Virus record (IMG/VR): IMGVR_UViG_2778261300_000006
Location: 1-19,140 of that record
DNA: 19,140 nucleotides
Reading direction: 5' to 3' (one strand)
Origin: a virus
Taxonomy: Duplodnaviria > Heunggongvirae > Uroviricota > Caudoviricetes
Positions 1 to 19,140 of this stretch are shown piece after piece; within the stretch, counting starts at the first letter, position 1, and each line of letters begins with the position of its first letter. The notes under the pieces are model-generated. The model worked only from the letters and a program-made list of their open reading frames with translations. It was not told the origin of the DNA and did not search any database. A program made the translations under genes and the position numbers.

Positions 1-201
1 TTAGGTAACTTCTTTACCTATTGCAACCGATAGATCTCGCAAAATCCGATAAGTCAAACGACCGCGAGGTAGTTCACTTTTACCAGCCCAGCGACTGACT
101 GCCTGGGTGACTGTTCGTGGTTCATAGCCCGCGTTAAGCGCGAACTGGCGCAAGCTACTGCCTCGTTCAACCAGCCGTGCCCGAACTTGTTGTTTGTTCA
201 T
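1..201 (-). CDS. Ner/Cro-like small HTH DNA-binding regulator
   Basis: 66-aa ORF (ATG at 201; the track's 207 start is GTG). The segment SLRQFALNAGYEPRTVTQAVSRWAGKSE resembles the Mu Ner / Nlp family pattern (SLSALSRQFGYAPTTLANALERHWPKGE) from memory. It is divergent from the plus-strand regulator. The stop codon sits at the window edge (1..3). Confidence 0.55.
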   Translation of the reverse strand: MNKQQVRARLVERGSSLRQFALNAGYEPRTVTQAVSRWAGKSELPRGRLTYRILRDLSVAIGKEVT

Positions 202-289
202 ATGCACCGTGTTCCTGTTAGGTTATGATGTACTCTATTGGGTCTATTGTACACACCCAAATGAGTGTGTCAAATTGAGATATGTTCAA
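202..289. promoter_or_regulatory. Divergent intergenic control region between the Ner-like and XRE-like regulator genes
   Basis: 88-bp AT-rich spacer between two divergently oriented HTH genes. It contains a short inverted repeat, acacac-N9-gtgtgt (about 246..266). Promoters and operators are inferred from geometry only. Confidence 0.3.
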
Positions 290-697
290 ATGAGTACAAA
301 AGAGAGATTGCGTGAAGTGATGGATGCTAATGGCATGACAATAAAGGCATTATCTGACTTATCAAAAATTCCATATCGCTCACTTCAAAACTATTTGCGT
401 GGAGAGAGAGAACCAAACGCAGAGGCTCTTGTTGCGCTAAGTGCCCATTTGGGTGTATCGATCGATTGGCTACTTACCGGTAAAGAACATATTCCATCTA
501 AAGAAATTGTTGCTGTACCAACACAACATCAATTCAGCCCGTCAGACCTTAAAATGCTTGAACTTCTAAACCAGTTAGATCCTGAGGTTCGGCGAGATCT
601 CATGCGAGGCGCTGAAGAAAAACAGCGTGTGATTGAGATGGAAAAACAACTGAAGGAATTATCCGCAACGATTGAGCGGTTAAAAAATGTGGGTTAA
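290..697 (+). CDS. XRE-family HTH transcriptional regulator (repressor-like) with a C-terminal coiled-coil region
   Basis: ATG at 290 (MSTKERLREVMDANGMTIKALSDLSKIPYRSLQNYLRGEREP...) gives a classic XRE/Cro-CI-type helix-turn-helix. The C-terminus is charged and heptad-like (EEKQRVIEMEKQLKELSATIERLK). The track ORF starts at 194, but its N-terminal extension is unlikely to be translated. No S24 peptidase domain is present. Confidence 0.6.
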   Translation: MSTKERLREVMDANGMTIKALSDLSKIPYRSLQNYLRGEREPNAEALVALSAHLGVSIDWLLTGKEHIPSKEIVAVPTQHQFSPSDLKMLELLNQLDPEVRRDLMRGAEEKQRVIEMEKQLKELSATIERLKNVG

Positions 698-767
698 TGT
701 GTTCCTAACGAGAACATATAGCAGAAATTATTTGCCATTAAGCAATAAAAAATAAGGTGGATAGCCA

Positions 768-3990: not shown

Positions 3991-4341
3991 ATGAAAAACC
4001 TGAAAAAATTCATTCCCCCTGTTAAAAAACCTCGCCTCAGCGGCTGGCTGCTGACCTCAGTGCTGCTGCTGGGCACCATCGCTCTGGTCTCGCCACAGCA
4101 GTTGCCTGTTGTGATCTACAAGCTGGCACTCATCACGCTGGCAGCAGTGCTGGGTTACTGGCTTGACCGTTCGCTCTTCCCCAAAGCCCGTCCCGGTCAG
4201 TACCTGAAACATGACGACAGACTGATGGCTGAAGGGCGTTTCCCTGTGCAGACCGGCCTTCACCTTGTATTTTCTGCTGCGTTAATCCGCCGTGCACTGA
4301 TTGTTGCAGCGGTCTGTCTGGCTGTGGCAACAGGACTGTGA
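3991..4341 (+). CDS. Holin-like small membrane protein (2-3 predicted TM segments)
   Basis: ATG at 3991 with RBS GAGGAG at 3979..3984. 116 aa with hydrophobic stretches WLLTSVLLLGTIALV, VVIYKLALITLAAVLGYWL and ALIRRALIVAAVCLAVATGL. Stop overlaps the start region of the downstream lysis gene. Confidence 0.5.
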   Translation: MKNLKKFIPPVKKPRLSGWLLTSVLLLGTIALVSPQQLPVVIYKLALITLAAVLGYWLDRSLFPKARPGQYLKHDDRLMAEGRFPVQTGLHLVFSAALIRRALIVAAVCLAVATGL

Positions 4342-4343
4342 CC

Positions 4344-4886
4344 ATGAACTGGCCTCAAATCACCCTCATTATTCTGTTCGCCTTTGGTCTGGGCGTAACC
4401 GCCATCAGGCACGGAGAACCACGTAACGATAAATACAGCTTCTGGTGGCAGCTTGCTGGCAACCTGGTGATTGTCTGGCTGCTCTGGTGTGGCGGCTTCT
4501 TCAGTCAGGCCCGCGCAGCGCAGCCTCCGCAGGCTGCGCTGCAGTATCGCGATGATGTGATCCGTAATGCCCGGCTTGAATGGGGACTGTCTGCGCCGGT
4601 GGCCGATTTCGCCGCGCAACTGCATCAGGAAAGCGGCTGGCGACCTGATGCGGTCTCGCCGGCTGGCGCTCAGGGACTGGCGCAGTTCATGCCTGCCACT
4701 GCCGACTGGATAAGCCAGTTGATACCGATGCTGAGCAGTCGTGAGCCGTTTAATCCTGCATGGGCTATCCGGGCGCTGGTCAGCTATGACCGCTGGCTGT
4801 GGCAGCGCGTAAGCGCCGCCAACGACTGCGAGCGTATGGCCATGACACTGTCGGGCTATAACGGTGGTCTACACCCTGCGCCGTAA
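4344..4886 (+). CDS. Signal-anchored lytic transglycosylase (endolysin-like, SLT domain), apparently truncated or frameshifted
   Basis: N-terminal hydrophobic segment (WPQITLIILFAFGLGVTAI) followed by the family-1 SLT signature ...HQESGWRPDAVSPAGAQGLAQFMPATADWI... and YNGG. The ORF stops right after the YNGG motif; see the 4891..5016 feature. Confidence 0.6.
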   Translation: MNWPQITLIILFAFGLGVTAIRHGEPRNDKYSFWWQLAGNLVIVWLLWCGGFFSQARAAQPPQAALQYRDDVIRNARLEWGLSAPVADFAAQLHQESGWRPDAVSPAGAQGLAQFMPATADWISQLIPMLSSREPFNPAWAIRALVSYDRWLWQRVSAANDCERMAMTLSGYNGGLHPAP

Positions 4887-4890
4887 GGGG

Positions 4891-5016
4891 ATGCCTGTTG
4901 CCGACAAGTACGACGGAGCCGGCGGCAAGGTGAAGTACTGCCGTTATACCGATATCTACAAAGTCGCCGTGGTTGGTGGCGATGCCGGGTATCTCATTAC
5001 CGGTATCAGTAAATAA
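4891..5016 (+). pseudogene. +1-frame continuation of the transglycosylase gene (frameshifted 3' portion or separate 41-aa ORF)
   Basis: The +1 frame reads ...YTLRRKGMPVADKYDGAGGKVKYCRYTDIYKVAVVGGDAGYLITGISK and ends at 5016, exactly where the RBS (AAGGAGG) of the next gene begins. The frame switch would lie near the ggtggt run around 4862..4870. Confidence 0.4.
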
Positions 5017-5025
5017 GGAGGCGTT

Positions 5026-5364
5026 ATGGGAACCACTCAGCAGGTCATTCTGATCACAACCGTAACGGCAGGGGCCGCACTGGCACAGCAGCGTTTTGTC
5101 GGGGCAGATAATACCCCCTGTAAAGCCGGTGCCGCAGCGCTCGGGGTTGCCGAAGTGGATGCTGTTACCGGCGACAGCACGCCGGTGAGCGTTCTGGGCA
5201 TTATTGCTGTCGAGGCCGGGGCCGCTGTCAGCCGTGGTGTGGCTGTTCAGTCAGATGCTCAGGCCAGAGCCGTGCCGCAGTCCGGCGACGGTAAATCCTG
5301 TGGTATTGCACTTGATGAAGCCGGGGGTGAAGGCGACGTCATTCGTATCCTGCGCGGGGTGTGA
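5026..5364 (+). CDS. Ala/Gly-rich small structural protein (possibly Mu gp35-like, DUF2190-type)
   Basis: ATG at 5026 with perfect RBS AAGGAGG. 112 aa. Its position immediately upstream of a DUF1320-like gene matches Mu late-operon order. The family call is from memory and weak. Confidence 0.45.
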   Translation: MGTTQQVILITTVTAGAALAQQRFVGADNTPCKAGAAALGVAEVDAVTGDSTPVSVLGIIAVEAGAAVSRGVAVQSDAQARAVPQSGDGKSCGIALDEAGGEGDVIRILRGV

Positions 5365-16656: not shown

Positions 16657-17622
16657 ATGGCAAATCTACCCGAAACCCCGCAGTGGGAAAGCGGCATCTA
16701 CCAGATTGAGGTCTCTGACCCCGTTCTGGGCGGACCTGACGGAATTTCTAACCGCCAGGCTAAACAACTGGCCAGCCGAACGTCATACCTCAAACAGAAG
16801 GTCGAAAAAAGCGGAACAGACCTGGCTGCACATATCGCGGCAGTTGACCCGCATACCCAGTACGCGACGAAAGCCAGTCCGACATTCACCGGCACACCAA
16901 CAGCACCTACACCTGCAAATGGTGATAACAGCAAAAAGCTGGCGACGACGGAGTTTGTGGCCAAAGCACTTGCGGCACTTGCAGGCAGCGCCCCTGAGAC
17001 ACTGGATACGCTTAAAGAGCTGGCTGACGCTCTCGGTAATGATCCAAACTTTGCGACTACGGTACTGAACAAGCTGGCGGAAAAGCTGGCTAAAGACCAG
17101 AACGGCGCAGATATTCCTGAGCCTGCGCTGTTTGTCAAAAACCTTGGTTTGGGGGAAGGCTCTGCACTGCCCGTTGGTGTGCCTGTTCCGTGGCCCTCAG
17201 CCACACCGCCAGCAGGGTGGCTGAAATGTAACGGAGCAGCATTTTCTTCTGAAATGTACCCCAAACTGGCAAAGGCTTACCCCGCGAATAAATTACCGGA
17301 TTTACGGGGTGAGTTTATTCGTGGCTGGGATGACGGGCGCGGGATTGATCCTGGTCGCCAGTTGCTTGGGTGGCAGAAAGGTACTTTGGTTGGTGGTAGA
17401 GATGACAATGATGCCGCAGTTGATATTTCATATATGAGTAACGGAAATAGTATTGATTACGGTGGCGATAAAACATTTTCAACGAATTACCGGAGTGATT
17501 ATTTATGGTATGCAATTCTGGGTAACGTCACTGGTCGTGCCAAAGCTGCTTTAAGTGGGTCCTTTTTTAATGTAACTCGTCCACGCAACATCGCCTTTAA
17601 CTACATTGTGAGAGCAGCATAG
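16657..17622 (+). CDS. Tail fiber protein: constant N-terminal part fused to variable C-terminal cassette 1 (tail-collar domain)
   Basis: 321 aa. The constant region contains the conserved fiber segment SPTFTGTPTAPTPANGDNSKKLATTEFVAKALAALAGSAPETLDTLKELADALGNDPNFATT (P2 gpH-like). The variable part begins at about 17146 with the tail-collar-type motif GWLKCNGAAFSSEMYPKLAKAYP...LPDLRGEF and ends ...RPRNIAFNYIVRAA. Confidence 0.8.
   Translation: MANLPETPQWESGIYQIEVSDPVLGGPDGISNRQAKQLASRTSYLKQKVEKSGTDLAAHIAAVDPHTQYATKASPTFTGTPTAPTPANGDNSKKLATTEFVAKALAALAGSAPETLDTLKELADALGNDPNFATTVLNKLAEKLAKDQNGADIPEPALFVKNLGLGEGSALPVGVPVPWPSATPPAGWLKCNGAAFSSEMYPKLAKAYPANKLPDLRGEFIRGWDDGRGIDPGRQLLGWQKGTLVGGRDDNDAAVDISYMSNGNSIDYGGDKTFSTNYRSDYLWYAILGNVTGRAKAALSGSFFNVTRPRNIAFNYIVRAA
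17132..17157. other. Putative Gin/Hin/Cin-type recombination crossover site A, at the constant/variable junction of the fiber gene
   Basis: ttgtcaaaaacc-tt-ggtttgggggaa: a 12+2+12 bp arrangement whose left half matches the recalled hix/gix half-site (TTCTTGAAAACC / TTCCTGTAAACC) at 9 of 12 positions. Homology with the downstream repeat copy starts exactly at the central dinucleotide. Confidence 0.5.
17144..17345 (+). repeat. Repeat copy A (5' conserved part of variable fiber cassette 1)
   Basis: About 200 bp nearly identical to 17628..17829 (direct) and to the reverse complement of 19035..19140 (inverted; truncated by the window end). Confidence 0.85.
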
Positions 17623-17641
17623 AAACGTTGGTTTGGGGGAA
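17616..17641. other. Putative crossover site B (direct orientation relative to site A)
   Basis: agcatagaaacg-tt-ggtttgggggaa: right half identical to site A, left half diverged and overlapping the stop codon of cassette 1. Confidence 0.4.
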
Positions 17642-17829
17642 GGCTCTGCACTGCCCGTTGGTGTGCCCGTTCCGTGGCCCTTAGCAACACCACCAACGGG
17701 CTGGCTGAAATGTAACGGTGCAGCATTTTCTTCTGAAATGTACCCCAAACTGGCAAAAGCCTACCCCGCGAATAAATTACCGGATTTACGCGGAGAATTT
17801 ATCCGTGGCTGGGATGATGGGCGAGGAAT
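17628..17829 (+). repeat. Repeat copy B (5' conserved part of silent cassette 2)
   Basis: Direct repeat of 17144..17345 with a few substitutions; the two copies diverge after ...GRGID. Confidence 0.85.
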
Positions 17830-18109
17830 TGATGCGGCACGCGCTTTATTGAGCATTCAAAACGGGATGTTGGAAAAACACCGCCATATTGTTGTAGCTA
17901 ACGATGGATATGACACAAAAGATGAATGGGAGTTGGCTACGATTTTCAAAAAAACATATACACAAGGCAGGGGGCTTGATGCCACAAATACAGGAGGGAG
18001 TTTGACTCCATCACCAACGCTTCATTCACGAGGAAGTATTGGTAACACAGGTGGTAGTGAAACCCGCCCCCGCAATATTGCATTTAACTATATCGTGAGG
18101 GCGGCTTAG
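17630..18109 (+). CDS. Silent alternative tail-fiber C-terminal cassette 2 (no own start codon)
   Basis: Open frame encoding GEGSALPVGVPVPWP...GWLKCNGAAFSSEMYPKLAKAYPANKLPDLRGEFIRGWDDGRGID, then a unique middle, then the conserved end ...RPRNIAFNYIVRAA. There is no ATG or RBS (the track start is TTG at 17633), so it would need to be joined to the constant region to be expressed. Confidence 0.55.
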   Translation, partial: GLGEGSALPVGVPVPWPLATPPTGWLKCNGAAFSSEMYPKLAKAYPANKLPDLRGEFIRGWDDGRGIDAARALLSIQNGMLEKHRHIVVANDGYDTKDEWELATIFKKTYTQGRGLDATNTGGSLTPSPTLHSRGSIGNTGGSETRPRNIAFNYIVRAA

Positions 18110-18115
18110 TTATAT

Positions 18116-18733
18116 TCAACTGGCTGCTGCCAGAGGCATTTCCGGCCAGTTGATATCCGGTGCAGTGCTGATGTCAGTCGCATTAAGCACATCTATGAAA
18201 TCAAGCACGGCGTTTAGTTTTTCCGTCTCCTGGGGCGTCAATCGGCGTCCGGCTCGTAGTTTGAGATTTATAAGCTCAACAGATGCCATTGCCTGTTCCT
18301 CAAGTTGCTGACGATGCGCTCCGGCAGCTTCCAGTTCTGCTGCGTGCTGTCGTCCCGCATCTGTCACCCAGGTCTCACCATCCCAGACATCATAGATAGT
18401 AGCTGGCTGTTTCACCGTCGTATCAGGAGGGTAATCTCCCGGTTGTGTGATTTGCACAGCGTTACCATTCTCTGTGCTGTAAACCGTTTCGCCTCTGTGG
18501 TCTGGAACATATTTCCAGATGTTCTGGTCGGTATCACGACAGACAGCGAAGCCGGGGCGTTTTTCTGGTGGCGCGTCAATGCATGAGTGAGCCGGAATTC
18601 CAACACCATAAGCGAGATACTCAACAGTGGCAGAGAGATATTCACGGTTTTCAGCATCGTAGTTATAAACGGTAATATCGCCTGCAGTTATAGCGATACC
18701 ATTCTGATCAAGTACTGCAGCAGCATTATTCAT
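18116..18733 (-). CDS. Tail fiber assembly chaperone (Mu U/U'-like)
   Basis: 205 aa. C-terminal ...INWPEMPLAAAS resembles the conserved C-terminus of Mu U / Tfa-type fiber assembly proteins (recall). ATG overlaps the stop of the inverted cassette 3 (TAATG). Confidence 0.75.
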   Translation of the reverse strand: MNNAAAVLDQNGIAITAGDITVYNYDAENREYLSATVEYLAYGVGIPAHSCIDAPPEKRPGFAVCRDTDQNIWKYVPDHRGETVYSTENGNAVQITQPGDYPPDTTVKQPATIYDVWDGETWVTDAGRQHAAELEAAGAHRQQLEEQAMASVELINLKLRAGRRLTPQETEKLNAVLDFIDVLNATDISTAPDINWPEMPLAAAS

Positions 18734-19140
18734 TAAGTAGCCCTTACAATATAGTTAAACGCAATATTACGGGGGCGGTTTTCCGTTCCTGTATTCCCTC
18801 CGTTGGCACCTAATCTATAAACACCACGAGTGCCAATAGCACGTAGTGAAGATGGAACTTTTACACCTGACTCATCTGTTTTAACAATCCCGCCATCACC
18901 GTATGTAGCCAGTATACCAGGGTTTGTTCCTGCACGGGTGCTATTTGCGGCAAGCCCTTCACCAGTCCATAACTCCATATAGTGAATATGATCTATAACC
19001 GAATGTGATTGTGCATTAAGCAAGGAACGCCCTGAATCAATTCCCCGCCCGTCATCCCAGCCGCGAATAAACTCACCCCGTAAATCCGGTAATTTATTCG
19101 CGGGGTAGGCTTTTGCCAGTTTGGGGTACATTTCAGAAGA
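18733..19140 (-). CDS. Inverted alternative tail-fiber C-terminal cassette 3 (partial; 5' end beyond window)
   Basis: Minus-strand frame encoding ...SSEMYPKLAKAYPANKLPDLRGEFIRGWDDGRGID-(unique middle)-...NRPRNIAFNYIVRAT. Open to the window edge. Followed by its own chaperone on the same strand. Confidence 0.65.
   Translation of the reverse strand, partial: SSEMYPKLAKAYPANKLPDLRGEFIRGWDDGRGIDSGRSLLNAQSHSVIDHIHYMELWTGEGLAANSTRAGTNPGILATYGDGGIVKTDESGVKVPSSLRAIGTRGVYRLGANGGNTGTENRPRNIAFNYIVRAT
19035..19140 (-). repeat. Repeat copy C (inverted; truncated by window end)
   Basis: The reverse complement matches 17730..17829 and 17246..17345. The inverted crossover site itself would lie about 85 bp beyond the window. 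Confidence 0.8.

Follow-up and report, generated by a model that had tools for sequence, protein, structure and literature searches.

What is the function of two short helix–turn–helix (HTH) genes that diverge from a common spacer at the left edge of a 19,140-nucleotide stretch of tailed-phage DNA (IMG/VR record IMGVR_UViG_2778261300_000006; hereafter the window), and do they constitute a phage immunity switch, as the original prediction from the sequence proposed? Both open reading frames were found where that prediction had placed them, with ORF A on the minus strand and ORF B on the plus strand, on either side of an 88-bp spacer (Table 1). The reading as an immunity switch is supported by genome context in intact Mu-like relatives. 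We consider it likely that the region is the lysis–lysogeny control region of a BcepMu-type transposable (Mu-like) E. coli prophage, with ORF B as immunity repressor and ORF A as a Ner-like protein. Control regions of this kind are an ordinary feature, and public records already annotate this one by homology; taken at face value, the expected repressor/Ner-like region of a BcepMu-type prophage therefore adds little. Only two points are mildly unexpected, namely a conserved palindrome just past ORF B (S2) and a Ner-like gene that does not covary with immunity type. A toxin–antitoxin reading was rejected, as ORF A is an HTH protein and the gene pair is tied to a transposition operon. An Rfam scan of positions 1–1000 returned no RNA family match.

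Table 1. Position, strand and sequence of the features of the control region, in window coordinates
Feature	Position	Strand	Sequence	Remark
ORF A	201..1	minus	begins MNKQQVRARLVERGSSLRQFALNAGYEPRTVTQAVSRWAGKSELPRGRL	66 aa; ATG at 201..199; in-frame GTG at 207 a possible alternative start
ORF A/ORF B spacer	202-289			88 bp
Conserved left spacer block	209..235		GTGTTCCTGTTAGGTTATGATGTACTC	putative early-transcript leader with ORF A ribosome-binding site; candidate ORF A binding region
Putative ORF A ribosome-binding site	216..211	minus	AGGAAC	
Conserved TAnnnT hexamer	224-229	plus	TATGAT	without a -35; candidate -10 of the repressor promoter
Half-site	240-245		GGGTCT	makes a second dyad across the PE -10
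Early promoter PE	246..273	minus	-35 TTGACA (273..268), 16-nt spacer, -10 TACAAT (251..246)	aimed at ORF A
Candidate operator O1	251..270		ACACAC (251-256)-N8-GTGTGT (265-270); core dyad ACACCC-AAAT-GAGTGT (253-268)	fills the PE -10/-35 spacer
Direct repeat D1	258 and 287		CAAATGAGT	9-mer common to O1 and O2; distance 29 bp
Candidate operator O2	282..298		ATGTTCAAATGAGTACA	overlaps the ORF B start codon (290-292)
ORF B	290..697	plus		135 aa; residues 1-66 XRE/P22 c2-like HTH, 67-82 linker, 83-135 conserved helical C-terminal module
S2 palindrome	700..716		TGTTCCTAACGAGAACA	2 nt past the ORF B stop, at the border of the variable cargo slot

The domain search that had been suggested for both proteins returned HTH_3 and Phage_CI_repr for ORF B and a sub-threshold HTH_35 match for ORF A. 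The ORF B scores (PF01381, 47.4 bits; PF07022, 28.7 bits) both exceed their Pfam cutoffs and, together with a five-helix lambda-repressor-like fold, place the protein among XRE and phage CI-type regulators. Specifically, the AF2 model predicts a five-helix HTH domain (residues 3–63), a disordered linker (67–82) and two further helices (84–95 and 98–134). The coiled-coil tail originally proposed agrees with the a/d heptad pattern read from the sequence at M117, L121, L124, I128 and L131, and we regard residues 83–135 as a putative oligomerisation coiled coil. The predicted lack of an S24 autopeptidase domain likewise held up; neither S24 nor any other peptidase occurs among the Pfam results and helices are predicted for the C-terminal 53 residues, setting ORF B apart from autocleaving repressors of the LexA/CI type. 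Among ORF B homologues, several N-terminal HTH types are joined to one and the same conserved C-terminal module.

In its overall build, ORF B resembles DicA of the Qin cryptic prophage and the short repressors of the Gifsy type, being a 135-aa P22 c2-like protein that consists of an HTH domain, a linker and a short helical C-terminus with no S24 domain; like DicA, it is situated in a defective prophage (PMC10448788). The alignment to the DicA subfamily model NF007257 is full length (ORF B residues 5–131 against 8–132 of the 135 model positions), with a score of 40.2 bits against a cutoff of 101. ORF B thus differs from the DicA/DicC pair in falling well below that cutoff and in having a Ner-like partner, not a Cro-like one as in DicC.

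The surroundings of the pair are best seen in intact relatives. Prophages of 18 complete E. coli genomes match the region at 99.6–100% identity, and those of 44 others at ~84%. To the left of ORF A, intact relatives carry an IclR-type HTH gene, a DUF3102 gene, an rve DDE transposase gene (35.8 bits) and an AAA_22 (MuB-like) ATPase gene (73.4 bits), followed further left by Gam (assigned by annotation), several small genes, gp16/GemA and finally Mor (147.8 bits) at the prophage end. In strain CE0011b, ORF B is followed on its right by cargo genes, Dam, lysis genes, and Mu-type head and tail genes. The DDE transposase, MuB-like ATPase, Gam and Mor that adjoin the immunity region mark these relatives as Mu-like transposable prophages, and the insertion sites vary accordingly, with the CE0011b prophage in emrA and that of the source genome in flgL. 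The left flank had been singled out in the original prediction as the place to look for Mu-type transposase or early genes, which are indeed found there in intact relatives but not in the source genome, where host flgL takes their place.

The early transposition operon opens with ORF A, which diverges from the repressor gene, both in L001, L002, L003 and L004 and at 20 genome loci. From Enterobacterales to Pseudomonas, the divergent arrangement holds at 20 of 22 genome loci, and the spacer measures 87–90 bp in 15 of the 21 loci in which ORF B could be placed. The ORF A gene of the KP12_2 record likewise heads an operon with the rve transposase, AAA_22 ATPase, Gam and Mor. This record (GenBank OM835952.1, 'Klebsiella phage KP12 clone KP12_2', L002) is filed under Vequintavirinae and carries the Mu-like genome type described here, being 84% identical to window positions 4–721 and unchanged in gene order; by all appearances it is a temperate phage that was co-assembled, and not part of a Vequintavirinae genome.

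The gene order of the ORF A operon agrees with that of BcepMu genes 16 to 1, which rise together after H2O2 as one early operon (PMC2830190). In BcepMu, gp17 is annotated as repressor and gp16 as DNA-binding protein, and gp13/gp14 of KS10 form a homologous pair (PMC2628397). As in these phages, a repressor of ~135–156 aa without a peptidase domain diverges from an HTH gene of 62–74 aa (PMC2628397, PMC2830190), and the small HTH gene opens a leftward early operon with transposase and ATPase, with Mor at the prophage end. The likeness to BcepMu gp16/gp17 and KS10 gp14/gp13 rests on annotation; at the sequence level BcepMu is too dissimilar for tblastn to detect, and ORF A falls short of the TIGR04111 cutoff.

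Phage Mu provides a second point of comparison. Its repressor gene diverges from a Ner-type first early gene, its operators overlap the early promoter, and its repressor possesses no LexA-like autocleavage domain. The present lineage shares with Mu c/Ner the transposable lifestyle, the divergence of the repressor gene from a small Ner-type early gene and a repressor without an autocleavage domain, and shares with the Mu Pe–Pc region the overlap of candidate operators with the early promoter. It differs from Mu in that the early operon faces the prophage end and the immunity region is located inside the prophage. In addition, the DNA-binding domain of Mu c is a MuA-like winged helix, whereas that of ORF B is an HTH of the XRE/P22 c2 type.

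Where, then, would a repressor act? The promoter scan found one strong promoter, PE, which lies on the minus strand and matches the consensus at 11 of 12 positions; equivalent hexamers occupy the same position in other immunity types. A consensus scan of the plus strand did not find a sigma-70 promoter for ORF B, for which a conserved hexamer in the left part of the spacer is a candidate -10 (Table 1). The inverted repeat noticed originally is present, with arms eight nucleotides apart and not nine, and it coincides with the interval between the PE -10 and -35 hexamers (O1). Across the 21 loci, O1 and O2 change together with the N-terminal DNA-binding domain of ORF B. The dyad in the O1 slot reads ACACCC-AAAT-GAGTGT in type 1 as found in the window, ACGCAC-N8-GTGCGT in type 1 from Pseudomonas, TACTC-AAAC-GAGTA in type 1 from Lelliottia, TTATTC-AAAAT-GAATAA in type 2, TACTC.AAA.GCGTAA in type 3 and TTCCCAAATGGGAT in type 4, and TCCCAAATGGGA is also among the same-position dyads of relatives that vary with the ORF B HTH type. 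For types 2, 3 and 4, the O1 of a locus recurs at its ORF B start, with agreement in 11–14 of 16 positions and a fixed offset of ~29 bp; the match is weaker in type 1 (7–10 of 16), and part of it is conserved start codon context. In type 1b, the closest variant, with an identical recognition region, O1 is degenerate (ACGCAC...GTATGT) and only an ACCC-N4-GGGT core is kept, which leaves the exact definition of the operator uncertain.

The covariation points to ORF B as the immunity repressor, as O1 and O2 vary with its HTH domain while ORF A is nearly constant. Comparison of the window with type 2 gives at least 90% identity across ORF A, ~50–65% from position ~200 to ~530, and 80–100% in the C-terminal part of ORF B. 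Judged from these alignments, the boundaries at ~200 and ~530 present the usual picture of an exchanged immunity cassette. The comparative analysis thereby furnishes testable operator and promoter assignments for a widespread, unstudied prophage lineage of Enterobacterales and Pseudomonas.

ORF A had been described as Ner/Cro-like, and the two halves of that label fared differently. Its match to Pfam HTH_35 (PF13693; 17.2 bits, E 0.0053, residues 2–43 only) lies below the gathering cutoff of 25, and its best and only NCBIfam match, TIGR04111 (BcepMu gp16; 29.7 bits, E 4.5e-7, residues 4–35), lies below the cutoff of 34; a 62%-identical homologue in Pseudomonas phage BR319a bears the RefSeq label 'BcepMu gp16 family'. 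PDB sequence searches with ORF A, both as a single sequence and as a profile, gave no meaningful match, and the link to Ner came only from fold and profile–profile comparison. The AF2 model is a confidently predicted four-helix HTH (pLDDT 93), the predicted fold most resembles the DNA-binding proteins EnrR and Ner, and hhalign against a Ner-family alignment gave 78% probability (E 1.8e-5, 43 columns). EnrR is ~45% identical to Mu Ner, and both EnrR and Ner have a short loop between helices 3 and 4 (PMC9023278). The hallmarks of Ner, namely the invariant WPKGE turn, this short loop and a C-terminal IWPSRY, are not those of ORF A. Unlike in Mu Ner, the loop of the ORF A family is 9 residues long and includes LPRGR, which aligns with WPKGE after a 5-residue insertion, and the C-terminus bears an IGxEVxPGIL motif. 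Given a profile–profile match but sub-cutoff scores, ORF A is probably a distant relative of Ner and not a member by curated thresholds, and to that extent the first half of the label stands. In relatives the protein is 74 aa long and ends in the conserved PGIL motif, so that the window copy is 3'-truncated; identity within the family ranges from 60 to 97% from E. coli to Pseudomonas and Azotobacter. A DNA-binding domain shared between regulator and transposase, as in Mu, was rejected, as the transposase N-terminus shows no similarity to ORF A.

The second half of the label does not survive the comparison of immunity types. ORF A is identical or 97% identical across types 1a, 1b and 2, and 60–75% identical out to Pseudomonas, indicating that the candidate operators track ORF B and not ORF A. 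ORF A hardly varies while the repressor HTH and its operators are traded, and so cannot compete with ORF B for those sites in the manner of Cro. Ner differs between Mu and D108, which are heteroimmune; unlike in that pair, ORF A here does not vary with immunity type, and the heteroimmune variants represent a clean cassette exchange without covariation of the Ner-like gene. The second early gene (IclR-type, 101–102 aa in enterobacterial relatives) is 92–97% identical across immunity types and was rejected as an immunity-specific partner, as it too shows no covariation with type. In the Pseudomonas relatives (L016–L024), the gene after ORF A encodes an unrelated ~160-aa protein (MKRPVLATKRQVMSAVI...YPGGRECAAARLG...), implying that the second early gene is replaceable and ORF A is not.

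A further constant element is the block in the left part of the spacer (Table 1), which is kept across types 1–4 and in Enterobacterales, Pseudomonas and Azotobacter; the right half of the spacer is not. Since ORF A stays constant while operators and HTH are exchanged as a cassette, we infer that it would act through this immunity-independent block. Just past ORF B, 20 of 23 related loci carry the S2 palindrome, with the consensus TGT(T/A)CC(C/T)ATT(A/G)(A/G)GAACA, at an unchanged offset, and one more has it 15 nt past the stop, whatever the immunity type, genus or downstream cargo. Close matches to S2 (0–1 mismatch) within the prophage are confined to this one site. The base changes among its copies are not compensatory, which makes a protein-binding DNA site likelier than an RNA hairpin.

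A speculative and rather unlikely extension of these patterns is an immunity region built in two layers, in which HTH, O1 and O2 form a swappable cassette, and ORF A, the block at 209–235, the ORF B C-terminal module and S2 form an invariant layer on which ORF A acts. ORF A may in that arrangement bind S2 and the leader block, or contact the ORF B C-terminal module. Were this correct, lytic commitment would be independent of immunity type, and S2 would also gate a variable, possibly anti-phage, cargo slot.

The constancy of ORF A could also be explained without treating it as a DNA-binding analogue of Ner or Cro, if ORF A were a universal antirepressor, or another kind of partner, with the conserved C-terminal module of ORF B as its point of contact. 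Such a role would account for why ORF A (with the identities given above) and that module, conserved across types as well, both remain constant during exchange of the HTH/operator cassette, and the PHROGs scan described below found no other candidate for an antirepressor. However, the confidently predicted HTH fold of ORF A is nearest to DNA-binding EnrR and Ner, and the conserved DNA block beside its gene is a simpler target. Moreover, ORF A would be made only after derepression of PE, and could thus reinforce induction but not trigger it. We regard an antirepressor function as improbable, and retain the reading of ORF A as a Ner-like protein.

The position of S2 draws attention to the cargo slot (768–2983), which extends from the repressor gene to Dam. 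In the window it contains genes for an NA37 nucleoid-associated protein (272 bits) and a 401-aa membrane protein; the latter matches phrog_5023 and, below threshold, NF053869 (75.9 bits against a cutoff of 315) and Kiwa KwaA (21 bits). The two proteins may represent a defence pair expressed in the lysogen. Relatives carry instead a 177-aa lipoprotein-like gene, a 297-aa plus 114/145-aa pair, a 376-aa gene, or no cargo. Could ORF B mainly regulate this downstream cargo in the fashion of CapH-type XRE proteins, its pairing with ORF A being incidental? Such a role would fit its weak PADLOC matches to the capH and RmrA HTH regulators, the sub-threshold resemblance of the 401-aa protein to KwaA and the anti-phage family NF053869, and a search that found no terminator between ORF B and the cargo. 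We nevertheless consider it very unlikely, because the cargo differs among relatives while ORF B, spacer and ORF A are fixed throughout, and because what the candidate operators overlap is the early promoter, not one serving the cargo. The view that ACACAC-N8-GTGTGT is a chance feature of a promoter spacer, with ORF B acting elsewhere or not at all, can appeal to the equally good inverted repeats (arms of at least 6 bp) in 18% of shuffled spacers and to the degraded repeat of type 1b relatives with the same recognition helix, yet it is hard to sustain when just 1.8% of shuffles hit the fixed 22-nt slot, when dyads in that slot, between the PE -35 and -10, recur in about 20 related loci and vary with HTH type, and when a second copy lies ~29 bp away at the ORF B start, and we therefore take the O1 repeat as real.

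With ORF B as immunity repressor, the following mechanism can be proposed. The C-terminal helical module would probably link two or more ORF B subunits, whose HTH domains would bind O1, the adjoining half-site across the -10, and O2. Occupancy of O1 between the -35 and -10 of PE would silence the early operon, with its genes (in intact phages) for ORF A, the IclR-type HTH protein, transposase, MuB-like ATPase, Gam and Mor, and binding to O2 at its own start codon would subject ORF B to negative autoregulation. ORF A would most likely behave as a Ner-like protein that, after PE fires, damps both repressor synthesis and early transcription.

Given that ORF B possesses no S24 domain, its sequence permits the fair inference of an induction route other than autocleavage. 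Derepression would then depend on an antirepressor, on host proteolysis or on stochastic loss. For host proteolysis, Mu provides a precedent. Among short repressors, DicA is relieved by the antirepressor Rem (PMC10448788), and the Gifsy repressors are inactivated by LexA-controlled antirepressors (PMC3121763). Unlike in the DicA and Gifsy systems, neither an antirepressor gene nor a LexA box was found in this prophage lineage. A PHROGs scan of ten early-operon proteins of the intact relative yielded no annotated antirepressor, and the sole match to the LexA box (CTGT-N8-ACAG) lies inside a structural gene and has a GC-rich centre, as expected at chance level, giving no sign of SOS control.

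Two deletions have affected the prophage of the source genome. On the source contig (GCA_002518655.1, NOMQ01000028.1), the base adjoining window position 1 belongs to host flgL. Phage homology reaches as far as window position 4 and shares 4 bp, ACCT, with the flgL homology (L028 10195–10201 onward); window bases 1–3 (TTA) differ from all 62 E. coli matches because the deletion joint to flgL lies there. The deletion joins codon 66 of ORF A to flgL, and the position of this joint at the left edge of the window implies loss of the last 8 codons of ORF A together with the whole early/transposition module. The flgL gene is disrupted at the joint (called at 272 aa, with the Flagellin_N domain only), and flgK to flgA come next. 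The second deletion, deduced by comparing the window, the source contig and the intact relative, removed the head module from between a truncated SLT gene, which stops at 4886, and the DUF2190 gene, which begins at 5026. The SLT endolysin gene (window 4338–5026 region) encodes 182 aa in the window and 180 aa on the source contig, compared to 242 aa in the intact relative. Approximately 8.5 kb of that relative (L001 25069–33541) are absent from the window, comprising a lipoprotein gene, a membrane protein gene, terminase, the DUF935 portal, a MuF-like gene and capsid genes.

The source prophage is thus a remnant that retains holin, a full tail module and regulators but is without heads and without Mor, and its control region is an orphan. 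As the left flank is host flgL and not transposase genes, nothing is left for the switch to induce in this genome. Expression from the region would now be limited to the repressor and, probably, the cargo genes downstream of it, and the orphan repressor could confer immunity against superinfecting relatives. Repressor and cargo have here outlasted the transposition and head modules, making the source strain a small example of a defective prophage that keeps immunity and cargo functions.

At the opposite end of the window, the tail-fibre region (16657–19140) contains three copies of a C-terminal cassette (MYPKLAKAYPANKLPDLRGEFIRGWDDGRGID...) and a 220-nt direct repeat at 17139 and 17623. Inverted repeats of 105–123 nt, 90–93% complementary, pair 17245–17367 and 17729–17833 with 19018–19140. 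The region looks like an invertible host-range region of the Mu G-segment type that runs past the window end.
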